Positions 48,380 to 64,000 of a stretch of 64,000 bases of DNA are shown one piece after another. Source of the stretch: Thermoproteota archaeon (GTDB lineage: Archaea > Korarchaeota > Korarchaeia > Korarchaeales > Korarchaeaceae); assembly GCA_027491915.1 (NCBI GenBank), contig JAOZGC010000002.1:352001-416000 (forward strand), given 5' to 3'. Position 1 is the stretch's first letter; each line of letters starts with the position of its first letter. Both the position numbers and the translations under genes were made by a program. The notes below the pieces were generated by a model, which was not told where the DNA came from, made no database searches, and saw only the letters and a list, made by a program, of their open reading frames with translations.

Positions 48380-49423
48380 TCACACCCCACCCATGACGTA
48401 GGCCATGATGGCCTTCTGCACGTGGAGCCTGTTCTCCGCCTCGTCGAAGACCACGCTGTGGGGGCCGTCTATCACGTCGTCGGTGACCTCCATGCCCCTG
48501 TCAGCCGGCAGGCAGTGCAGGTATATCACGTCTCCCTTGGCCCTATCCAGCTTCTCCTGGGTGGTTATCCAGTCCTTGTGCTTGTTCATCAGGTCTATCA
48601 TCCCCCTCTCGTCCACCTCCGGCACCTTGGGCGGCATGAACTCCAGGGAGCCCCAGCTCTTCGGGTAGACCACGTCCGCCCCCTCGAAGGCCTCGTCCAT
48701 GTCGTACGAGATCTCAAAGCTCCCGCCGTACCTGTCCGCGTTATCCTTGGCCATCTCAATTATGTCCGGGTGGAGCTCGAGCCCCCGCGGGTGGGCCAGC
48801 GTCACGTCAGCCCCGAACCTGGTGAATATGAGGACGGCGCTCTGGGGGACGGCCACCGGCTTAACGCCCGCGCTGTAGGCCCAGCTGACCACCACCTTCT
48901 TCCCCTCGAGCCTGCCCTTGTACTCCATGACCGTCATGAGGTCGGCCATCGCCTGGTTCGGGTGATACACGTCGTCCTCCATGTTTATCACGGGTATGGA
49001 CGCCCAGTGGGCGAACTCCCTCACTATCCTGTCCCCCTTCCCGTAGATCCACTGGACCGGCTCCCCGTAGATCCTTATGGCTATGGCGTCCCCGTACCTG
49101 CTGAGGACTCGGGCCACGTCCGAGATCCTCTCGGTCTTGTAGGCTATCTCTTCCCCCTTGAGCGCCGGGGCGTAGACGGACTTCGGGGTCAGGTATATGC
49201 CCTGTCCCCCCAGCTGGAAGATCCCGGTCTGGAAGCTGTTCCTGGTCCTGAGGCTGCTGTTGTAGAAGAGCATGTATAGGGTCCTGCCCTCCAGCAGCCT
49301 GTGCGGAATTCTCTGCCTCTGCTTCGCCTTTAAATCGAAGGCCAGCTTCAGCACGGCCTCCAACTCTTCCCTACTCCACTCCTGGGTGGAGATGAAGTCC
49401 CTTCCCCTGAGATTCACCACCAA
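48380..49423 (-). CDS. Carbamoyltransferase of the knotted YgeW / N-acetylornithine subgroup
   Basis: SSLRTR, HPNQAMAD, SWAYS..VKP.AVPQS, ADVVYPKSW, HCLPAD. Confidence 0.85.
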   Translation of the reverse strand: MVVNLRGRDFISTQEWSREELEAVLKLAFDLKAKQRQRIPHRLLEGRTLYMLFYNSSLRTRNSFQTGIFQLGGQGIYLTPKSVYAPALKGEEIAYKTERISDVARVLSRYGDAIAIRIYGEPVQWIYGKGDRIVREFAHWASIPVINMEDDVYHPNQAMADLMTVMEYKGRLEGKKVVVSWAYSAGVKPVAVPQSAVLIFTRFGADVTLAHPRGLELHPDIIEMAKDNADRYGGSFEISYDMDEAFEGADVVYPKSWGSLEFMPPKVPEVDERGMIDLMNKHKDWITTQEKLDRAKGDVIYLHCLPADRGMEVTDDVIDGPHSVVFDEAENRLHVQKAIMAYVMGGV

Positions 49424-49746
49424 GGGTTGTCCCCCGGGGGCCCGGCCCCGGGCGGCGAAAACATAAACCTATCGGGCGCCGGCCTCACCCTGTGGGCGGA
49501 CGCCGGGCGGGACGCCTCTGAGCCATTCCAAGACCCCCAACCCGCCACCCGAGATAGGAATCGAGACGGGCCGCCCGGGTTGGGCGCGGGCATCTCGCCC
49601 CTCGGGTGTCCGATCCCGAATAATCCCGGGCGCTGGAGGTCGATCCTCGGGGAGCGGCTGGCCCCCGTCAACTTTTAACTCGGATTTCGCTCCAAATTGG
49701 TGGCACCTCGCCCTTGTTGGCCGACATATTTTTGGCCAATTTTTAA

Positions 49747-51102
49747 ATGGAGTCGATTAGGTTGACCGGGATGGGTCGGAGAGCCGTCCGGACCGGCCTG
49801 AGGTTGGCCTCGGTCGCTTGGATCTCGATCTCCATGGCGGCGACGGCGGCCGCCGTCGCCGGGGTCGGAATCGACTCGGTGGCCAGGGTCCTGACGTCCG
49901 AGTGGTACCTCGGCGTGGCCTTCTGGTTCCTCGTCCCCCTGGGGTGGCTCTCCCTCATATCCCTCCGGAGGCTAAGGCCGGGAAGGCCGGCGCTGCTGGG
50001 CGTGGACGTTCCCTGGCTCGGGGCCGCCCTGGCCCTCATGACCCTCTCGGTGCTCGCCGAGGCGGCCGCCGAGGCCGGGCCCGTGGATCCGGCGGTCTAC
50101 GTCGCGTCCACAACCGTCCCGGAGTCGCTGGGGATAGTCTCCTTCTTCACCTTCGTGGTCGACCTCTTCGAGACCTCTGGGCTGGCCCCCCGCCCCGGGA
50201 GGAGGGTCTCGCCGTTGATCCACGGAGTCGCGGCGGCGGCGATGGCCGCCCCGGCCCTGCTGGCCCTGATCTTCGCGGTCCGGTCCGGGAGGATCTCCCC
50301 CTGGGACGGAGTCGCCTTCGGCTTAGCGGCGGCCTGGCTGACCCACCTCCTGGCCAGGGCGGTCTCCGTACCGAGCGAGGCTCAGGAGGCGGCCGGTTCA
50401 GCGTGGGTGCTGGCTCTGGCGGCCCTGGCGCTCCAGCTCTCCAACCTGTGCTCTTGGTTCATCTCAGAGGCGGCCTCTCCCTCCCCCGTCTCGGGCCCGA
50501 TGGGGGTTCTCAGCGACGCAATGGACCTGATCAGCTGGACCCTGATCCCGCTGTCAGTCCTTTCCCTGGTTGGGTTCAGGGTGGAGTCCGCCGCGGCCGG
50601 GGTGGTCGAGCTGGTCGAGGTGCCCACCACGGGCCCGGTGCCGGGCGGCGTGTGGGAGAGGGCCCTCGCCCTCTCCCGGGGAGGGAGGGTGATAGTGGTG
50701 GGGAGGAGGTGGGTCCCCTGGATAGGGGCCCTGCCCCCCGGGAGGGGGGCTGCCATATACCTGACGGCCACGGTCGACTCGCCCAGGGAGCTCTCGCCCC
50801 GGGAGTTCGAGTGCCCCCCGGATCCGGAGACCCTGGCCGGCCTGGTGTCGACTCTGTCCGGGGGGTCGAGGTCGGCGGTCGTGGTGGACGACCTTTCCGA
50901 CCTGATACTCCTCTGCGGCCTGGACAAGGTTACGTCCTGCGCCCCGACCATGAGGGGACTGGCCGAGGGCGGGATATCCTTTCTGCTGCTCCTGAGGAGG
51001 GGGTCGGTGGGTCCCGGGGATCTCGCCTCCCTGAGGGAGGCGTTCGGGGGGAGGGAGTCCAAGGAGATCGCGGAGATCCGGGCGGTGGGCGATTCAAACT
51101 GA
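49747..51102 (+). CDS. Multi-pass membrane protein with C-terminal DUF835-like domain
   Basis: About 8 TM helices, then AIYLT...VVVDDLSDLILLCG...SLREAF. Confidence 0.55.
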   Translation: MESIRLTGMGRRAVRTGLRLASVAWISISMAATAAAVAGVGIDSVARVLTSEWYLGVAFWFLVPLGWLSLISLRRLRPGRPALLGVDVPWLGAALALMTLSVLAEAAAEAGPVDPAVYVASTTVPESLGIVSFFTFVVDLFETSGLAPRPGRRVSPLIHGVAAAAMAAPALLALIFAVRSGRISPWDGVAFGLAAAWLTHLLARAVSVPSEAQEAAGSAWVLALAALALQLSNLCSWFISEAASPSPVSGPMGVLSDAMDLISWTLIPLSVLSLVGFRVESAAAGVVELVEVPTTGPVPGGVWERALALSRGGRVIVVGRRWVPWIGALPPGRGAAIYLTATVDSPRELSPREFECPPDPETLAGLVSTLSGGSRSAVVVDDLSDLILLCGLDKVTSCAPTMRGLAEGGISFLLLLRRGSVGPGDLASLREAFGGRESKEIAEIRAVGDSN

Positions 51103-51330
51103 GTCTAGCGAGCCGGTCGGCGGATCCCCGGCCGATCTGCCCCCGAGATCGGGTCGGCGGATCGGAGCCCCGGCCCAGTCCCGGGAGGCCGGGCCCCAGG
51201 AGGTCAGATTAATATGTTGTCCTCCCCGGGCTCACGAGTCTCGGCGGCGACCGCCGGATCAGGAGGGGTAAGCTTGTCGGTTGGACGGGAGGAATCCGCG
51301 TCGGTCGGCGGCCATCCCGGCGAGGCGGGG

Positions 51331-62609: not shown

Positions 62610-62625
62610 AACGACGGCGGACCTG

Positions 62626-63969
62626 GTGATCAAGGGCGCCACCCTGCTGACGGACTCCCTCATGCTGGGGGGGGCCGGGGTGGCGGTCGAGGCCGGAAGG
62701 GTGACGGCGGTCGCCCTGGACCCCCACCTCCCCGACGCCTCCGAGGTCGTGGACGCCGGCGGCCAGCTCCTGATGCCGGGCGGGGTGGACTGCCACGCCC
62801 ACGTGTACGACCCCGACTACACCCACAGGGAGGACTGGGCCTCCGGCTCCGCCGCCGCGGCGGCCGGCGGGGTGACCACCCTGATAGACATGCCCCTGGT
62901 CCTGACCGTCATGCCGGAGCTGGCCAGGGAGAAGATCCAGGTCGGGGAGAGGGACTCCATGGTGGACTTCTCCCTCCACGCCGGCATGATGGAGACCGAG
63001 GAGCACCTACGCAGGATGCCCGAGCTCGTCGAGATGGGAATAAGGTCGTTCAAGGCCTTCACCACGGCCCCCTTCAGGGTGGGCTACGACTACATAGAGA
63101 GGCTGGCCGCCAGGGCCAGGGACCTGGGAGGGGTGGTCACGGTCCACTCGGAGGACGACGCCGTGATAAGGGAGGCCGAGAGGGAGGTCAGGGAGGTGAA
63201 GGGCAGGAGGGACCCCCTGGCCCACCACGACTCCAGGCCCCCCGAGGCCGAGGCGGCAGCCGTGGCCAGGCTGGTGGCGGCGGCCAGGGCGACCGGGGGG
63301 AGGATCCACGTGGCCCACATGACCACGGCCCAGGGGGTGGGGGAGGTGGCGGCCGCCAAGTCCGAGGGGCTGAGGGTCACCGCCGAGACCTGCCTCCACT
63401 ACCTGGTGTTCACCAAGGCCGACGTGGAGAGGTGGGGCCCGTACCTGAAGATGACCCCTCCCCTCAGGACTTCCTACCACGTCGAGGCCCTCTGGAGGGG
63501 GATAGCCTCCGGGGCCGTGGACGCCGTGGCCACGGACCACGCCCCGGGGACCAGGGAGGAGAAGGAGGTCGGCTGGGAGGACATATGGAGGGCCTGGGGC
63601 GGGATACCCGGGGTGGAGACCCTGGTCCCCGTCACCCTCAGCGAGGGGGTCTGGCGCAGGGGGCTGGACCCCAGGAGGGTGTGCAGGGTGCTGTGCCGGG
63701 GGCCGGCGGAGGCCTTCGGCCTCTACCCGAGGAAGGGTTCCCTGGCCCCCGGGTCGGACGCCGACCTGGTGCTGTTCGATCGGAAGGTTGAGAGGGTCGT
63801 CCGGGCGGCGGACCTCCACTACAAGGTGGGGTGGACCCCCTACGACGGGATCCTGGTCAGGGGCTGGCCCTCCAGGGTCTACGTGAGGGGGGAGCTGGTC
63901 GCCCTCGAGGGGGAGCCCGTCGGCCGACGGGGGCACGGGAGGTTCGTGCCCATGGGGGAGGTGTCGTGA
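62626..63969 (+). CDS. Cyclic amidohydrolase (allantoinase/dihydropyrimidinase-like)
   Basis: DCHAH, AAAGGVTT..DMP, SFK (carbamylated Lys), HSED, HVAH, KMTPPLR, TDHAP; lacks the dihydroorotase HxHxR Arg. Confidence 0.88.
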   Translation: MIKGATLLTDSLMLGGAGVAVEAGRVTAVALDPHLPDASEVVDAGGQLLMPGGVDCHAHVYDPDYTHREDWASGSAAAAAGGVTTLIDMPLVLTVMPELAREKIQVGERDSMVDFSLHAGMMETEEHLRRMPELVEMGIRSFKAFTTAPFRVGYDYIERLAARARDLGGVVTVHSEDDAVIREAEREVREVKGRRDPLAHHDSRPPEAEAAAVARLVAAARATGGRIHVAHMTTAQGVGEVAAAKSEGLRVTAETCLHYLVFTKADVERWGPYLKMTPPLRTSYHVEALWRGIASGAVDAVATDHAPGTREEKEVGWEDIWRAWGGIPGVETLVPVTLSEGVWRRGLDPRRVCRVLCRGPAEAFGLYPRKGSLAPGSDADLVLFDRKVERVVRAADLHYKVGWTPYDGILVRGWPSRVYVRGELVALEGEPVGRRGHGRFVPMGEVS

Positions 63970-64000
63970 TGGGATTCAAGGGTTGGGCCGGCAAGGTGAT
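63969..64000 (+). CDS. 5' end of a probable third AOR-family gene in this operon (truncated by the window edge)
   Basis: TGATG coupling; MGFKGWAGKV matches the AOR N-terminal GY/WxGKIL pattern. Confidence 0.5.
   Translation, partial: MGFKGWAGKV

Follow-up and report, generated by a model that had tools for sequence, protein, structure and literature searches.

The DNA analysed here (the window) is a stretch of 64,000 nucleotides from an archaeon labelled Thermoproteota, corresponding to positions 352001-416000 of contig JAOZGC010000002.1 (C4) in assembly GCA_027491915.1, and its 3′ part carries an operon in which proteins of the aldehyde:ferredoxin oxidoreductase (AOR) family are encoded together with a PreA/UacX-like reductase. 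The assembly comprises 1.12 Mb in four contigs, is 91% complete and has a G+C content of 64-66%. Genes were called from a listing of open reading frames (ORFs) combined with Pfam and NCBIfam scans of the window proteins, and additional DNA beyond the window end was included. The operon lies on the forward strand and begins with Fd1 (56540..57037; Fer4 families), a WorS/AorA-like subunit, followed by AOR1 (57030..58940), a WorL/AorB-like tungstopterin subunit, and the PreA/UacX-like reductase (58946..60130), in which a DHO_dh domain is joined to two C-terminal [4Fe-4S] clusters. Then come Fd2 (60158..60670; Fer4 families), a second WorS/AorA-like four-cluster subunit, AOR2 (60663..62609), a second WorL, a cyclic amidohydrolase of the hydantoinase/dihydropyrimidinase/allantoinase group (62626..63969; Amidohydro_1), and AOR3, a third WorL, which starts at 63969, passes the window end at 64000 and runs on to C4:417876 (window-equivalent 65876). 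All three AORs carry AFOR_N and AFOR_C. The gene order Fd-AOR-PreA-like-Fd-AOR-cyclic amidohydrolase-AOR given in the first-pass annotation was confirmed by ORFs, Pfam and NCBIfam, and the third AOR, of which only the start had been visible, is complete: its 635-aa gene extends 1.9 kb beyond the window end. Neighbouring genes are closely packed, with 8-nt overlaps, a 5-nt spacer preceded by a GGAGGTGA motif, spacers of 27 nt and 16 nt, and a 1-nt overlap, and every reading frame of the operon is intact and shows a strong coding signal.

Upstream on the same strand, an ABC transporter is encoded by an ATPase gene with two ABC domains (51214..52860; two stretches of ABC_tran), permease 1 (52865..53941) and permease 2 (53950..54885), both matching BPD_transp_2, and a BMP/PnrA-like binding protein of a nucleoside-type family (55049..56344; PF02608 Bmp, 132.7 bits); the BMP-type transporter proposed earlier is therefore present with all its components. 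The NCBIfam match of the ATPase begins only at residue 44-45, and translation may in fact start some 40 codons downstream of the called start. Further upstream, on the reverse strand, lies a gene for a carbamoyltransferase of the OTCase fold (347 aa; 48380..49423; Pfam OTCace_N and OTCace).

The PreA-like protein consists of an FMN-type DHO_dh domain and a C-terminal domain for two [4Fe-4S] clusters (Fer4 families at residues 338-394, with eight invariant cysteines), without an FAD/NAD(P)H domain, and its gene is the sole DHO_dh gene of the genome. Its best NCBIfam name is PreA, yet it misses the cut-off of NF006183 (198 versus 335 bits), and the PyrD class 1 models TIGR01037 and NF041011 are also missed (189 versus 270 and 125 versus 330 bits). 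When the protein is aligned to pig dihydropyrimidine dehydrogenase (DPD), Asn609 and Asn736 are retained, but Asn668 is Ser and the S-C671-P stretch of the N-L-S-C-P loop falls in a gap; that Cys671 is the catalytic position of pig DPD is backed by C671S and C671A entries. At the position of this loop, 17 family members share an invariant E-F-S-x-H-Y signature (E149, S151, H153, Y154). Because the catalytic Cys loop of DPD is missing, the name PreA denotes resemblance and not membership, although the architecture originally proposed, DHO_dh plus two [4Fe-4S] clusters, stands. With E. coli PreA and with PydAc of Clostridium chromiireducens, a ferredoxin-dependent dihydropyrimidine dehydrogenase and FAD-less PydA (PMC7332683), the protein has in common the FMN domain, the two C-terminal clusters, the lack of an FAD domain and a presumed low-potential donor; it differs from them in its score below the PreA cut-off, the deleted Cys loop, Ser at Asn668 and purine-type neighbour genes. 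No PreT partner (FAD/NAD subunit) is encoded in the operon, and a genome-wide search for PreT was not made. The family is large, with at least 3069 close archaeal relatives at E <=1e-20 among 8000 scored candidates, and relatives are labelled Aigarchaeota, Thermoprotei, Desulfurococcales, Bathyarchaeia and Asgard groups.

Six AOR-family genes were found in the genome, and four of them, a canonical AOR and AOR1-3, lie within 27 kb. AOR1, AOR2 and AOR3 match PF02730 and PF01314 at 267-464 bits; they are 53-54% identical to one another, 40-45% identical to the upstream canonical AOR and 35-38% identical to the sixth, distant paralogue. Among solved structures they reach 449-497 bits to Pyrococcus furiosus AOR (1AOR) and 9MQX_D (1AOR, 449-485 bits, with AOR1 at 485) and 395-446 bits to 8C0Z_A (AorB), and FOR, WOR83, WOR5 and BamB also score lower than 1AOR and 9MQX_D, whereas the canonical AOR scores 660 bits to 1AOR. 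The AOR equivalog model NF007354 is missed (AOR1 260 and AOR2 273 versus 868 bits; N-terminal part only). By family membership, AOR1-3 would be tungsten enzymes.

A tree of 71 rows was made from the six AORs of this genome and the AORs of 80 loci encoding relatives of the reductase. AORs of these loci qualified with 450 or more aligned residues and an ORF of no less than 520 aa, and truncated copies below these lengths entered neither the tree nor the counts. In this tree, 64 PreA-linked AORs formed one clade (SH-aLRT 98), and the canonical AOR of the same genome, one Bathyarchaeia AOR and four Desulfurococcales AORs fell outside. Subclades of AOR3 (19 rows, support 99) and AOR2 (15 rows, support 100) each span phyla, and the remainder consists of AOR1-type sequences and AOR5, the fourth clade member of this genome. 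Since rows were chosen via the PreA-like gene, a restriction of the clade to loci of this kind cannot be read from the tree.

To compare active sites, the P. furiosus residue numbering was checked on the 1AOR alignment and pocket residues were taken from section 5 of PMC13328260, in which Thr243, Glu313, Tyr427 and His448 are listed for aldehyde-oxidising tungsten oxidoreductases (WORs). Thr243, Glu313 and His448 were kept in all 64 clade members, as were Cys291, Cys295 and Cys494, and the pterin and cluster motifs are conserved. Tyr427 is present in five solved aldehyde oxidisers (1AOR, 9MQX_D, 8C0Z_A, 9G7J_A and 9Q1T_A) and in the canonical paralogue, but is Gln in 64/64 clade AORs. Thus, the core AOR machinery is intact and a single pocket residue is systematically altered. 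The four [4Fe-4S] ligands Cys288, Cys291, Cys295 and Cys494 all occur in AOR1-type (30/30) and AOR2 (15/15) proteins, and Cys288 is replaced by Asp in 18 of the 19 AOR3 proteins (motif A-D-F-A-C-x-x-x-C) with the other three ligands kept, suggesting an Asp-ligated cluster or an altered cluster potential. The clade AORs accordingly resemble 1AOR in two-domain architecture, in the four-Cys motif (AOR1 and AOR2) and in Thr243, Glu313 and His448, and differ from it in their separate branch, their pairing with WorS, Gln427 and, in AOR3, Asp288. Gln427 might be a sign of a heterocyclic substrate.

The wiring of these proteins can be compared with AorABC of Aromatoleum aromaticum, in which aorA, aorB and aorC encode a four-cluster subunit, a W subunit and an FAD subunit passing electrons to NAD+, and MoaD-like genes follow (PMC6365974). 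In the 2026 classification with five WOR classes, aorABC belongs to Class III, WorL-WorS-WorN (PMC13328260). The window shares the order of small four-cluster subunit, W subunit and third redox subunit: Fd1 and Fd2 each carry cysteines for four [4Fe-4S] clusters (16 invariant Cys in Fd1 across a 16-orthologue alignment) and sit immediately 5′ of AOR1 and AOR2, as WorS/AorA sits beside WorL, and Fd2 is closest among solved chains to 9MQX_E, 8C0Z_C (AorA) and the WOR5 small subunit. In Asgard loci, a MoaD-like gene also follows AOR-PreA. Besides Gln in place of Tyr427, the difference lies in the third subunit, since the WorN/AorC position is filled by the DHO_dh + Fer4 protein and the operon has no Pyr_redox protein. 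Because this third subunit is a DHODH/DPD-fold FMN protein with two [4Fe-4S] clusters and not an FAD/NAD protein, a heterocycle would take the place of NAD+ as the final electron acceptor. Moreover, because Fd1-AOR1-PreA is ordered like aorABC, the AORs most likely exchange low-potential electrons with the reductase via WorS. In 25 loci, no more than 250 nt separate the end of a clade AOR from the reductase gene that follows it; 24 of them belong to the 64 loci with sufficient upstream DNA. A predicted complex of Fd1 (16-sequence alignment) and the PreA-like protein (17-sequence alignment) scored 0.00 in two runs, which weighs neither way on binding.

AOR5 lies elsewhere on the contig with its own four-cluster ferredoxin (C4:482654-487732), next to a divergent gene for an FAD pyridine-nucleotide-disulfide oxidoreductase (Pyr_redox_2) and a downstream IF-2B/e2b2-like gene of the ribose-1,5-bisphosphate-isomerase family. 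Judged by gene content, ferredoxin plus FAD oxidoreductase is the ordinary Class III pattern, and the neighbourhood may reflect a connection with the ribose moiety of nucleosides.

Gene neighbourhoods of the reductase family were surveyed with one genome per species, which gave 567 encoding stretches, and the best 80 loci (50-81% identity) were kept. An SsnA-type hydrolase occurs in 54 of these 80 loci, a carbamoyltransferase (at least 35% identity, often two) in 34, an AOR at least 48% identical to AOR1-3 in 34, carbamate kinase in 23, a HyuA-like amidohydrolase in 17, a BMP binding protein in 7, M20 in 5 and an Xdh homologue in 2. When only loci of at least 15 kb are counted, 39/42 hold at least one of SsnA, carbamoyltransferase or HyuA-like genes, and guanine-deaminase-like or adenine deaminase genes are also among the family neighbours. 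The link to the bacterial anaerobic purine cluster drawn by the first-pass annotation therefore holds at the level of the family, where SsnA, carbamoyltransferase, carbamate kinase, HyuA-like, M20 and PALP genes lie near PreA-like relatives. The transporter-AOR-PreA operon recurs in the five closest relatives (79-81% identity), and in those with upstream DNA present a bona fide SsnA (555 versus 444 bits; locus L007) is encoded directly upstream. A Promethearchaeota locus contains two carbamoyltransferases, a TRZ/ATZ hydrolase, MoaD, SsnA, Fd, AOR, PreA and MoaD, with AOR3 and its own Fd 2 kb on, and a bacterial locus from Coprothermobacterota contains BMP-ABC, ThiF, Fd-AOR and Fd-AOR-PreA-PALP-M20-carbamoyltransferase-amidohydrolase. 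Hence, the linkage of AORs to PreA-like and nucleobase genes, which had been put forward as worth checking by synteny, is conserved in several archaeal phyla and one bacterium, and the PreA-linked AORs, for which a phylogeny had likewise been suggested, lie outside the canonical aldehyde AOR branch. Neither of the two outcomes named there as counting against the first-pass idea was therefore seen, and the interpretation given there is supported in part.

Other loci of the survey show variations of this theme. Zestosphaera and Thermogladius have the order carbamoyltransferase-carbamoyltransferase-carbamate kinase-SsnA-PreA; both carbamate kinases pass the equivalog cut-off, and SsnA is the best model for the hydrolase but stays under its cut-off. 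Two different carbamoyltransferases and a carbamate kinase were seen in Desulfurococcales loci (L021:5227-8441, L040:3177-7101 and similar), whose M20 hydrolases appeared in no more than 2 cases (L017, L043). The majority of these clusters might therefore cleave both ureido groups by phosphorolysis, with two ATP per purine. In two Desulfurococcaceae loci (L035, ~4.4-7 kb; L064, ~18.4-21 kb), XdhA/XdhD homologues of 27-32% identity lie in the PreA-carbamoyltransferase cluster, at the position held by AORs in other lineages. Two loci with operons 70-81% identical to that of the window (L009, L015) come from metagenome-assembled genomes labelled Nitrososphaerota and group with Thermoproteota 'Kor' isolates; the public taxonomic labels of these genomes conflict.

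Co-occurrence across whole genomes pointed in the same direction. Among 43 genomes of the same phylum, the reductase was found in 11, and the AOR clade was present in all 11 (E <=1e-165) and in 2 of the 32 reductase-negative genomes, one of these with only 46% identity. In a sample of 121 Asgard genomes, 30 encoded the reductase, and an AOR3-type gene (at least 57% identity) was found in 28 of these 30, one as a partial copy, and in 2/91 reductase-negative genomes. The two remaining reductase-positive Asgard genomes have AORs of 49% identity, adjoining the reductase in one. Both thresholds were chosen after score gaps had been seen, and related genomes are not independent. Desulfurococcales without the AOR clade have three to four Xdh-family genes each (5/5 genomes), and two such loci have Xdh in the cluster, whereas the Promethearchaeota and Baldrarchaeota AOR-cluster genomes have no Xdh-family genes. 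In the genome of the window itself, no Xdh-family gene was found (0 PF02738 matches in the 91% complete genome).

Further enzymes of a purine route were sought in this genome. The carbamoyltransferase is 33% identical to E. coli YgeW and is likely its functional counterpart. The operon amidohydrolase passes only the broad pyrC_multi subfamily-domain model (290.5 versus 279 bits), has L-hydantoinase 1GKR as best solved relative (267 bits) and is 32% identical to E. coli HyuA, making it a HyuA-like candidate for ring opening. A second cyclic amidohydrolase (C4:628643-630028, reverse strand) is 43% identical to that of the operon and passes the allantoinase model (376 versus 358 bits) in a genome otherwise without sign of oxidative urate breakdown. 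An M20 peptidase gene lies ~8 kb downstream of AOR3 on the opposite strand, and an M20 protein of the genome is 32% identical to E. coli YgeY. The PALP genes of the genome are threonine-synthase-like only and lie away from the cluster. The genome has no aspartate carbamoyltransferase (ATCase), no PyrF and no second DHO_dh gene; its only other carbamoyltransferase is a clear ornithine carbamoyltransferase (OTCase; 368 versus 281 bits), and the single PF00215 match is hexulose-6-phosphate-synthase-like. These missing pyrimidine genes fit a nucleoside scavenger, and the organism may depend on imported pyrimidines or nucleosides.

Two studies from 2025 describe a reductive uric-acid route in bacteria via 2,8-dioxopurine ('yanthine' type). 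It starts with the dehydroxylation of urate by an Xdh-family enzyme; the product, 2,8-dioxopurine, is the substrate of the reductase YgfK, ring opening is the task of SsnA and HyuA, YgeW and carbamate kinase lead to ATP, and YgeY and YgeX act last (PMC12507026; bioRxiv 10.1101/2025.04.24.650524). The components named in these studies are XdhD or DOPDH, YgfK or UacX, SsnA, HyuA, YgeW with YqeA, YgeY and YgeX. In C. difficile, UacX, a PydA homologue with PF01180 and an FMN site but no FAD domain, stands in place of YgfK; reduced ferredoxin was proposed as its donor, and the bacterial dearomatising reduction was detectable only when coupled to SsnA (PMC12507026). The PreA-like family agrees with the description of UacX in architecture and in SsnA neighbours. 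The genome resembles the bacterial route in its clustered FAD-less PF01180 reductase, HyuA-like enzyme and carbamoyltransferase, in its carbamate kinase and M20 genes at other sites, and in the SsnA and PALP genes of its relatives. It differs in the archaeal host, in two or three AORs with four-cluster subunits instead of Xdh, in the lack of detected SsnA and YgeX, and in the low identity (32-33%) of carbamoyltransferase, amidohydrolase and M20 to the E. coli proteins.

In accordance with these comparisons, we favour, with a probability of roughly 55%, the reading that the region encodes an archaeal form of the anaerobic reductive route for purines, one linked to AORs that are wired to a dearomatising reductase. 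Under this scheme, the BMP/PnrA-type ABC importer would take up nucleosides or bases, the PreA/UacX-like FMN and two-[4Fe-4S] enzyme would, by analogy, reduce and dearomatise the base, and the cyclic amidohydrolase would open the ring. The carbamoyltransferase and the distant carbamate kinase could then convert a ureido group to carbamoyl phosphate and ATP, and the M20 hydrolase could remove the second ureido group. Comparison across the sampled loci shows the two Fd-AOR pairs and the third AOR to be members of a dedicated subclade travelling with the reductase. Most likely, the AORs would feed low-potential electrons through their four-cluster WorS subunits to the reductase for the dearomatising step, replacing PreT or the FAD part of YgfK and possibly also Xdh. 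In this particular genome, where SsnA was not found, the route may be incomplete or altered.

Several observations weigh against this reading. SsnA was not found in the 91% complete genome, in which the only TRZ/ATZ-type hydrolase (C4:91.2-92.6 kb) scores 242 versus 444 bits with the SsnA model, and therefore the case for a complete pathway in this genome is weaker; the gene could lie in the unassembled part. On comparison with the relative that carries SsnA, homology sets in no earlier than within the ABC ATPase gene, and a search for a degraded SsnA between carbamoyltransferase and transporter was negative. YgeX was not found either (tblastn with E. coli YgeX, E <=1e-5, coverage >=30%), and carbamate kinase is encoded 132 kb from the cluster (C4:547.8-548.7 kb; TIGR00746, 447 versus 358 bits); of the downstream partners suggested at first pass, carbamate kinase and a YgeY-like M20 protein are thus present in the genome, and YgeX is the one that failed to appear. 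The protein first described as YgeW-like is an OTCase-fold enzyme as expected, but it misses both YgeW models (TIGR03316, 181 versus 500; NF005538, 186 versus 453 bits) and passes the N-acetylornithine model NF003384 (302 versus 288 bits). Likewise, the operon amidohydrolase fits no specific equivalog (allantoinase 330.5 versus 357.85, D-hydantoinase 309 versus 393 bits). The tungstate-binding model WtpA (TIGR03730) had no match in the genome; TupA and ModA were not searched. Desulfurococcales have an SsnA-PreA cluster without this AOR clade, and thus the clade AORs are not obligatory partners of the reductase. Three of the five other AOR-cluster genomes also hold one to two Xdh-family genes; a clean split between AOR and Xdh across genomes is thus borne out only in part. 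Finally, Thr243, Glu313 and His448 of aldehyde-oxidising AORs are all retained, so ordinary aldehyde chemistry could still be carried out by the clade AORs.

What the AORs themselves act on leads to a stronger version of the scheme, which we regard as tentative and well short of even odds. In this version, the clade AORs would be W-dependent purine hydroxylases or dehydroxylases acting at C2, C8 and C6, with electrons passing via the four-cluster subunits to the reductase. In its favour are the lack of an Xdh-family gene in this genome and in the Promethearchaeota and Baldrarchaeota genomes, the Xdh-family genes of those Desulfurococcales that lack the clade, the presence of two or three AOR orthologue groups per cluster and Gln427 throughout. 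However, Xdh-family genes occur in three AOR-cluster genomes, the catalytic Glu and His are kept, and the sole WOR with non-aldehyde activity described in the available text of the classification is benzoyl-CoA reductase (PMC13328260). The AOR substrate could be either a purine C-H or an aldehyde, and a role as electron donors only would also be compatible with the data.

Different pathways could also account for the same genes. In reductive pyrimidine catabolism, the PreA-like protein would be a PydAc-type dehydrogenase and the amidohydrolase a dihydropyrimidinase; M20 or the carbamoyltransferase would decarbamoylate N-carbamoyl-beta-alanine, and the AORs would supply electrons or oxidise malonate semialdehyde. 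The hydantoinase/dihydropyrimidinase-like amidohydrolase, the missing SsnA, the best NCBIfam name of the reductase, the retained Asn609 and Asn736, and the precedent of PydAc as an FAD-less PydA working on ferredoxin (PMC7332683) all suit this explanation. We nevertheless consider it doubtful, given the missed PreA cut-off, the deleted S-C671-P loop with Ser at Asn668 and the invariant E-F-S-x-H-Y instead, and family neighbours of purine pattern, with SsnA in 54/80 loci, purine deaminases and two carbamoyltransferases. A biosynthetic reading, in which the genes would encode the dihydroorotate dehydrogenase, dihydroorotase and ATCase of pyrimidine synthesis, can draw on the PreA-like gene being the only one of its DHO_dh family in the genome and on the pyrC_multi match of the amidohydrolase. 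This PyrD/PyrC/PyrB reading was rejected, and we give it almost no credence: there is no ATCase beside the OTCase, the PF00215 protein is not PyrF, scores with the PyrD models stay below cut-off, the protein lacks the catalytic Cys loop of class 1, and the family neighbours, with SsnA and arcC, are catabolic. A biosynthetic role of the operon is unlikely since the genome has no other DHO_dh, no ATCase and no PyrF.

The AORs may, on the other hand, be broad-range aldehyde:ferredoxin oxidoreductases of peptide or sugar fermentation that feed the general ferredoxin pool without dedicated coupling. Their closest solved relatives 1AOR, 9MQX_D and 8C0Z_A are aldehyde oxidisers (446-497 bits), and the three pocket residues and the pterin and cluster motifs are kept. 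AOR5, a clade member at another site, has a separate Fd and an FAD oxidoreductase beside it, as expected of Class III, and benzoyl-CoA reductase is the one WOR described with a non-aldehyde activity (PMC13328260). A general role of this kind would not predict co-occurrence with the reductase in 11/11 and 28/30 genomes, adjacency of AOR and reductase in 25 loci of several phyla, a clade apart from the canonical AOR, or Gln427 in 64/64 members against Tyr in the five solved oxidisers and the canonical paralogue, and hence we think it unlikely. The last explanation concerns this genome only: after loss of SsnA and rearrangement upstream, the cluster could be a remnant with no purine degradation or with altered function. 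SsnA and YgeX were not found, the genome is small (1.12 Mb), and the region preceding the transporter is unlike that of the five closest relatives. However, the operon frames are intact with strong coding signal and tight junctions, the orthologue of the carbamoyltransferase was relocated beside the operon, which suggests continued use, and SsnA could be in the missing part of a 91% complete assembly; decay of the cluster is therefore distinctly improbable in our view.

Several features near the operon lie outside the proposed route. Between carbamoyltransferase and transporter, a predicted membrane protein of 451 aa without assigned family (49747..51102, forward strand; ORF with GC3, the G+C content at third codon positions, of 0.90) occupies the position of SsnA in close relatives. 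It has zero Pfam or NCBIfam matches and no homologue across the 80 PreA-type loci, and its C-terminal stretch is 33% identical over 57 aa to a 434-aa DUF7504 protein encoded 28 kb downstream (L005:16119-17423). Ten kb upstream of the operon region, outside the main operon, the canonical AOR (615 aa), a MoaD/ThiS-like protein and a radical-SAM/SPASM protein are encoded at 38567..42094 on the forward strand; this AOR is likely an ordinary aldehyde AOR with cofactor-related neighbour genes. At 44696-47432 on the reverse strand, two ORFs of 455 and 526 aa overlap by ~210 nt, both with right-handed beta-helix/NosD-like repeats, and they may be a single gene split by a frameshift or adjacent paralogues. 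On the 3′ side of AOR3 follow an AAA_14/DUF4143 ATPase, a gene without family assignment, an amino-acid permease and an AsnC-type protein.

The type of pathway is known from bacteria, and its archaeal spread, the Gln427 AOR clade and the WorS-WorL-reductase arrangement appear to be new. The words archaea and tungsten do not occur in the available text of either bacterial pathway paper (PMC12507026; bioRxiv 10.1101/2025.04.24.650524), a word search of the WOR classification (main text and three supplementary files; PMC13328260) found no FMN/Fe-S reductase-type third subunit, and 'tungsten', 'AOR' and 'uric' are not in the main text of a Korarchaeota genomics paper. In the literature covered, from which the supplements of the preprint and those on Korarchaeota purines stood apart, no link of the AOR family with PreA/UacX-like reductases, SsnA or archaeal purine breakdown was found.

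Our results can help to assign functions within a family in which 5 of 92 tungsten oxidoreductase clades have a defined physiological role (PMC13328260), as one further WOR clade gains a concrete, testable role and a partner enzyme. A widespread archaeal counterpart in Desulfurococcales, Asgard, Bathyarchaeia, Nitrososphaeria and Korarchaeota-like lineages would carry the 2,8-dioxopurine pathway to hot and deep habitats, and would shed light on the use of scavenged nucleosides as a source of ATP and nitrogen by small, auxotrophic archaea. Even with the role of the AORs limited to electron donation, the WorS-WorL-reductase assembly would be a new kind of WOR complex. If they act on the purine ring, this would be new tungsten chemistry and a natural substitute for the molybdenum/selenium hydroxylases. 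Were they indeed purine hydroxylases, they would take the part of the Mo/Se enzymes XdhA and XdhD/DOPDH and provide a second non-aldehyde chemistry in the AOR family; a base such as hypoxanthine could then undergo ring opening with electron release and consumption in balance within the pathway, and Korarchaeota-like, Asgard, Bathyarchaeia and Nitrososphaeria lineages would possess a Mo-independent entry to purine fermentation.

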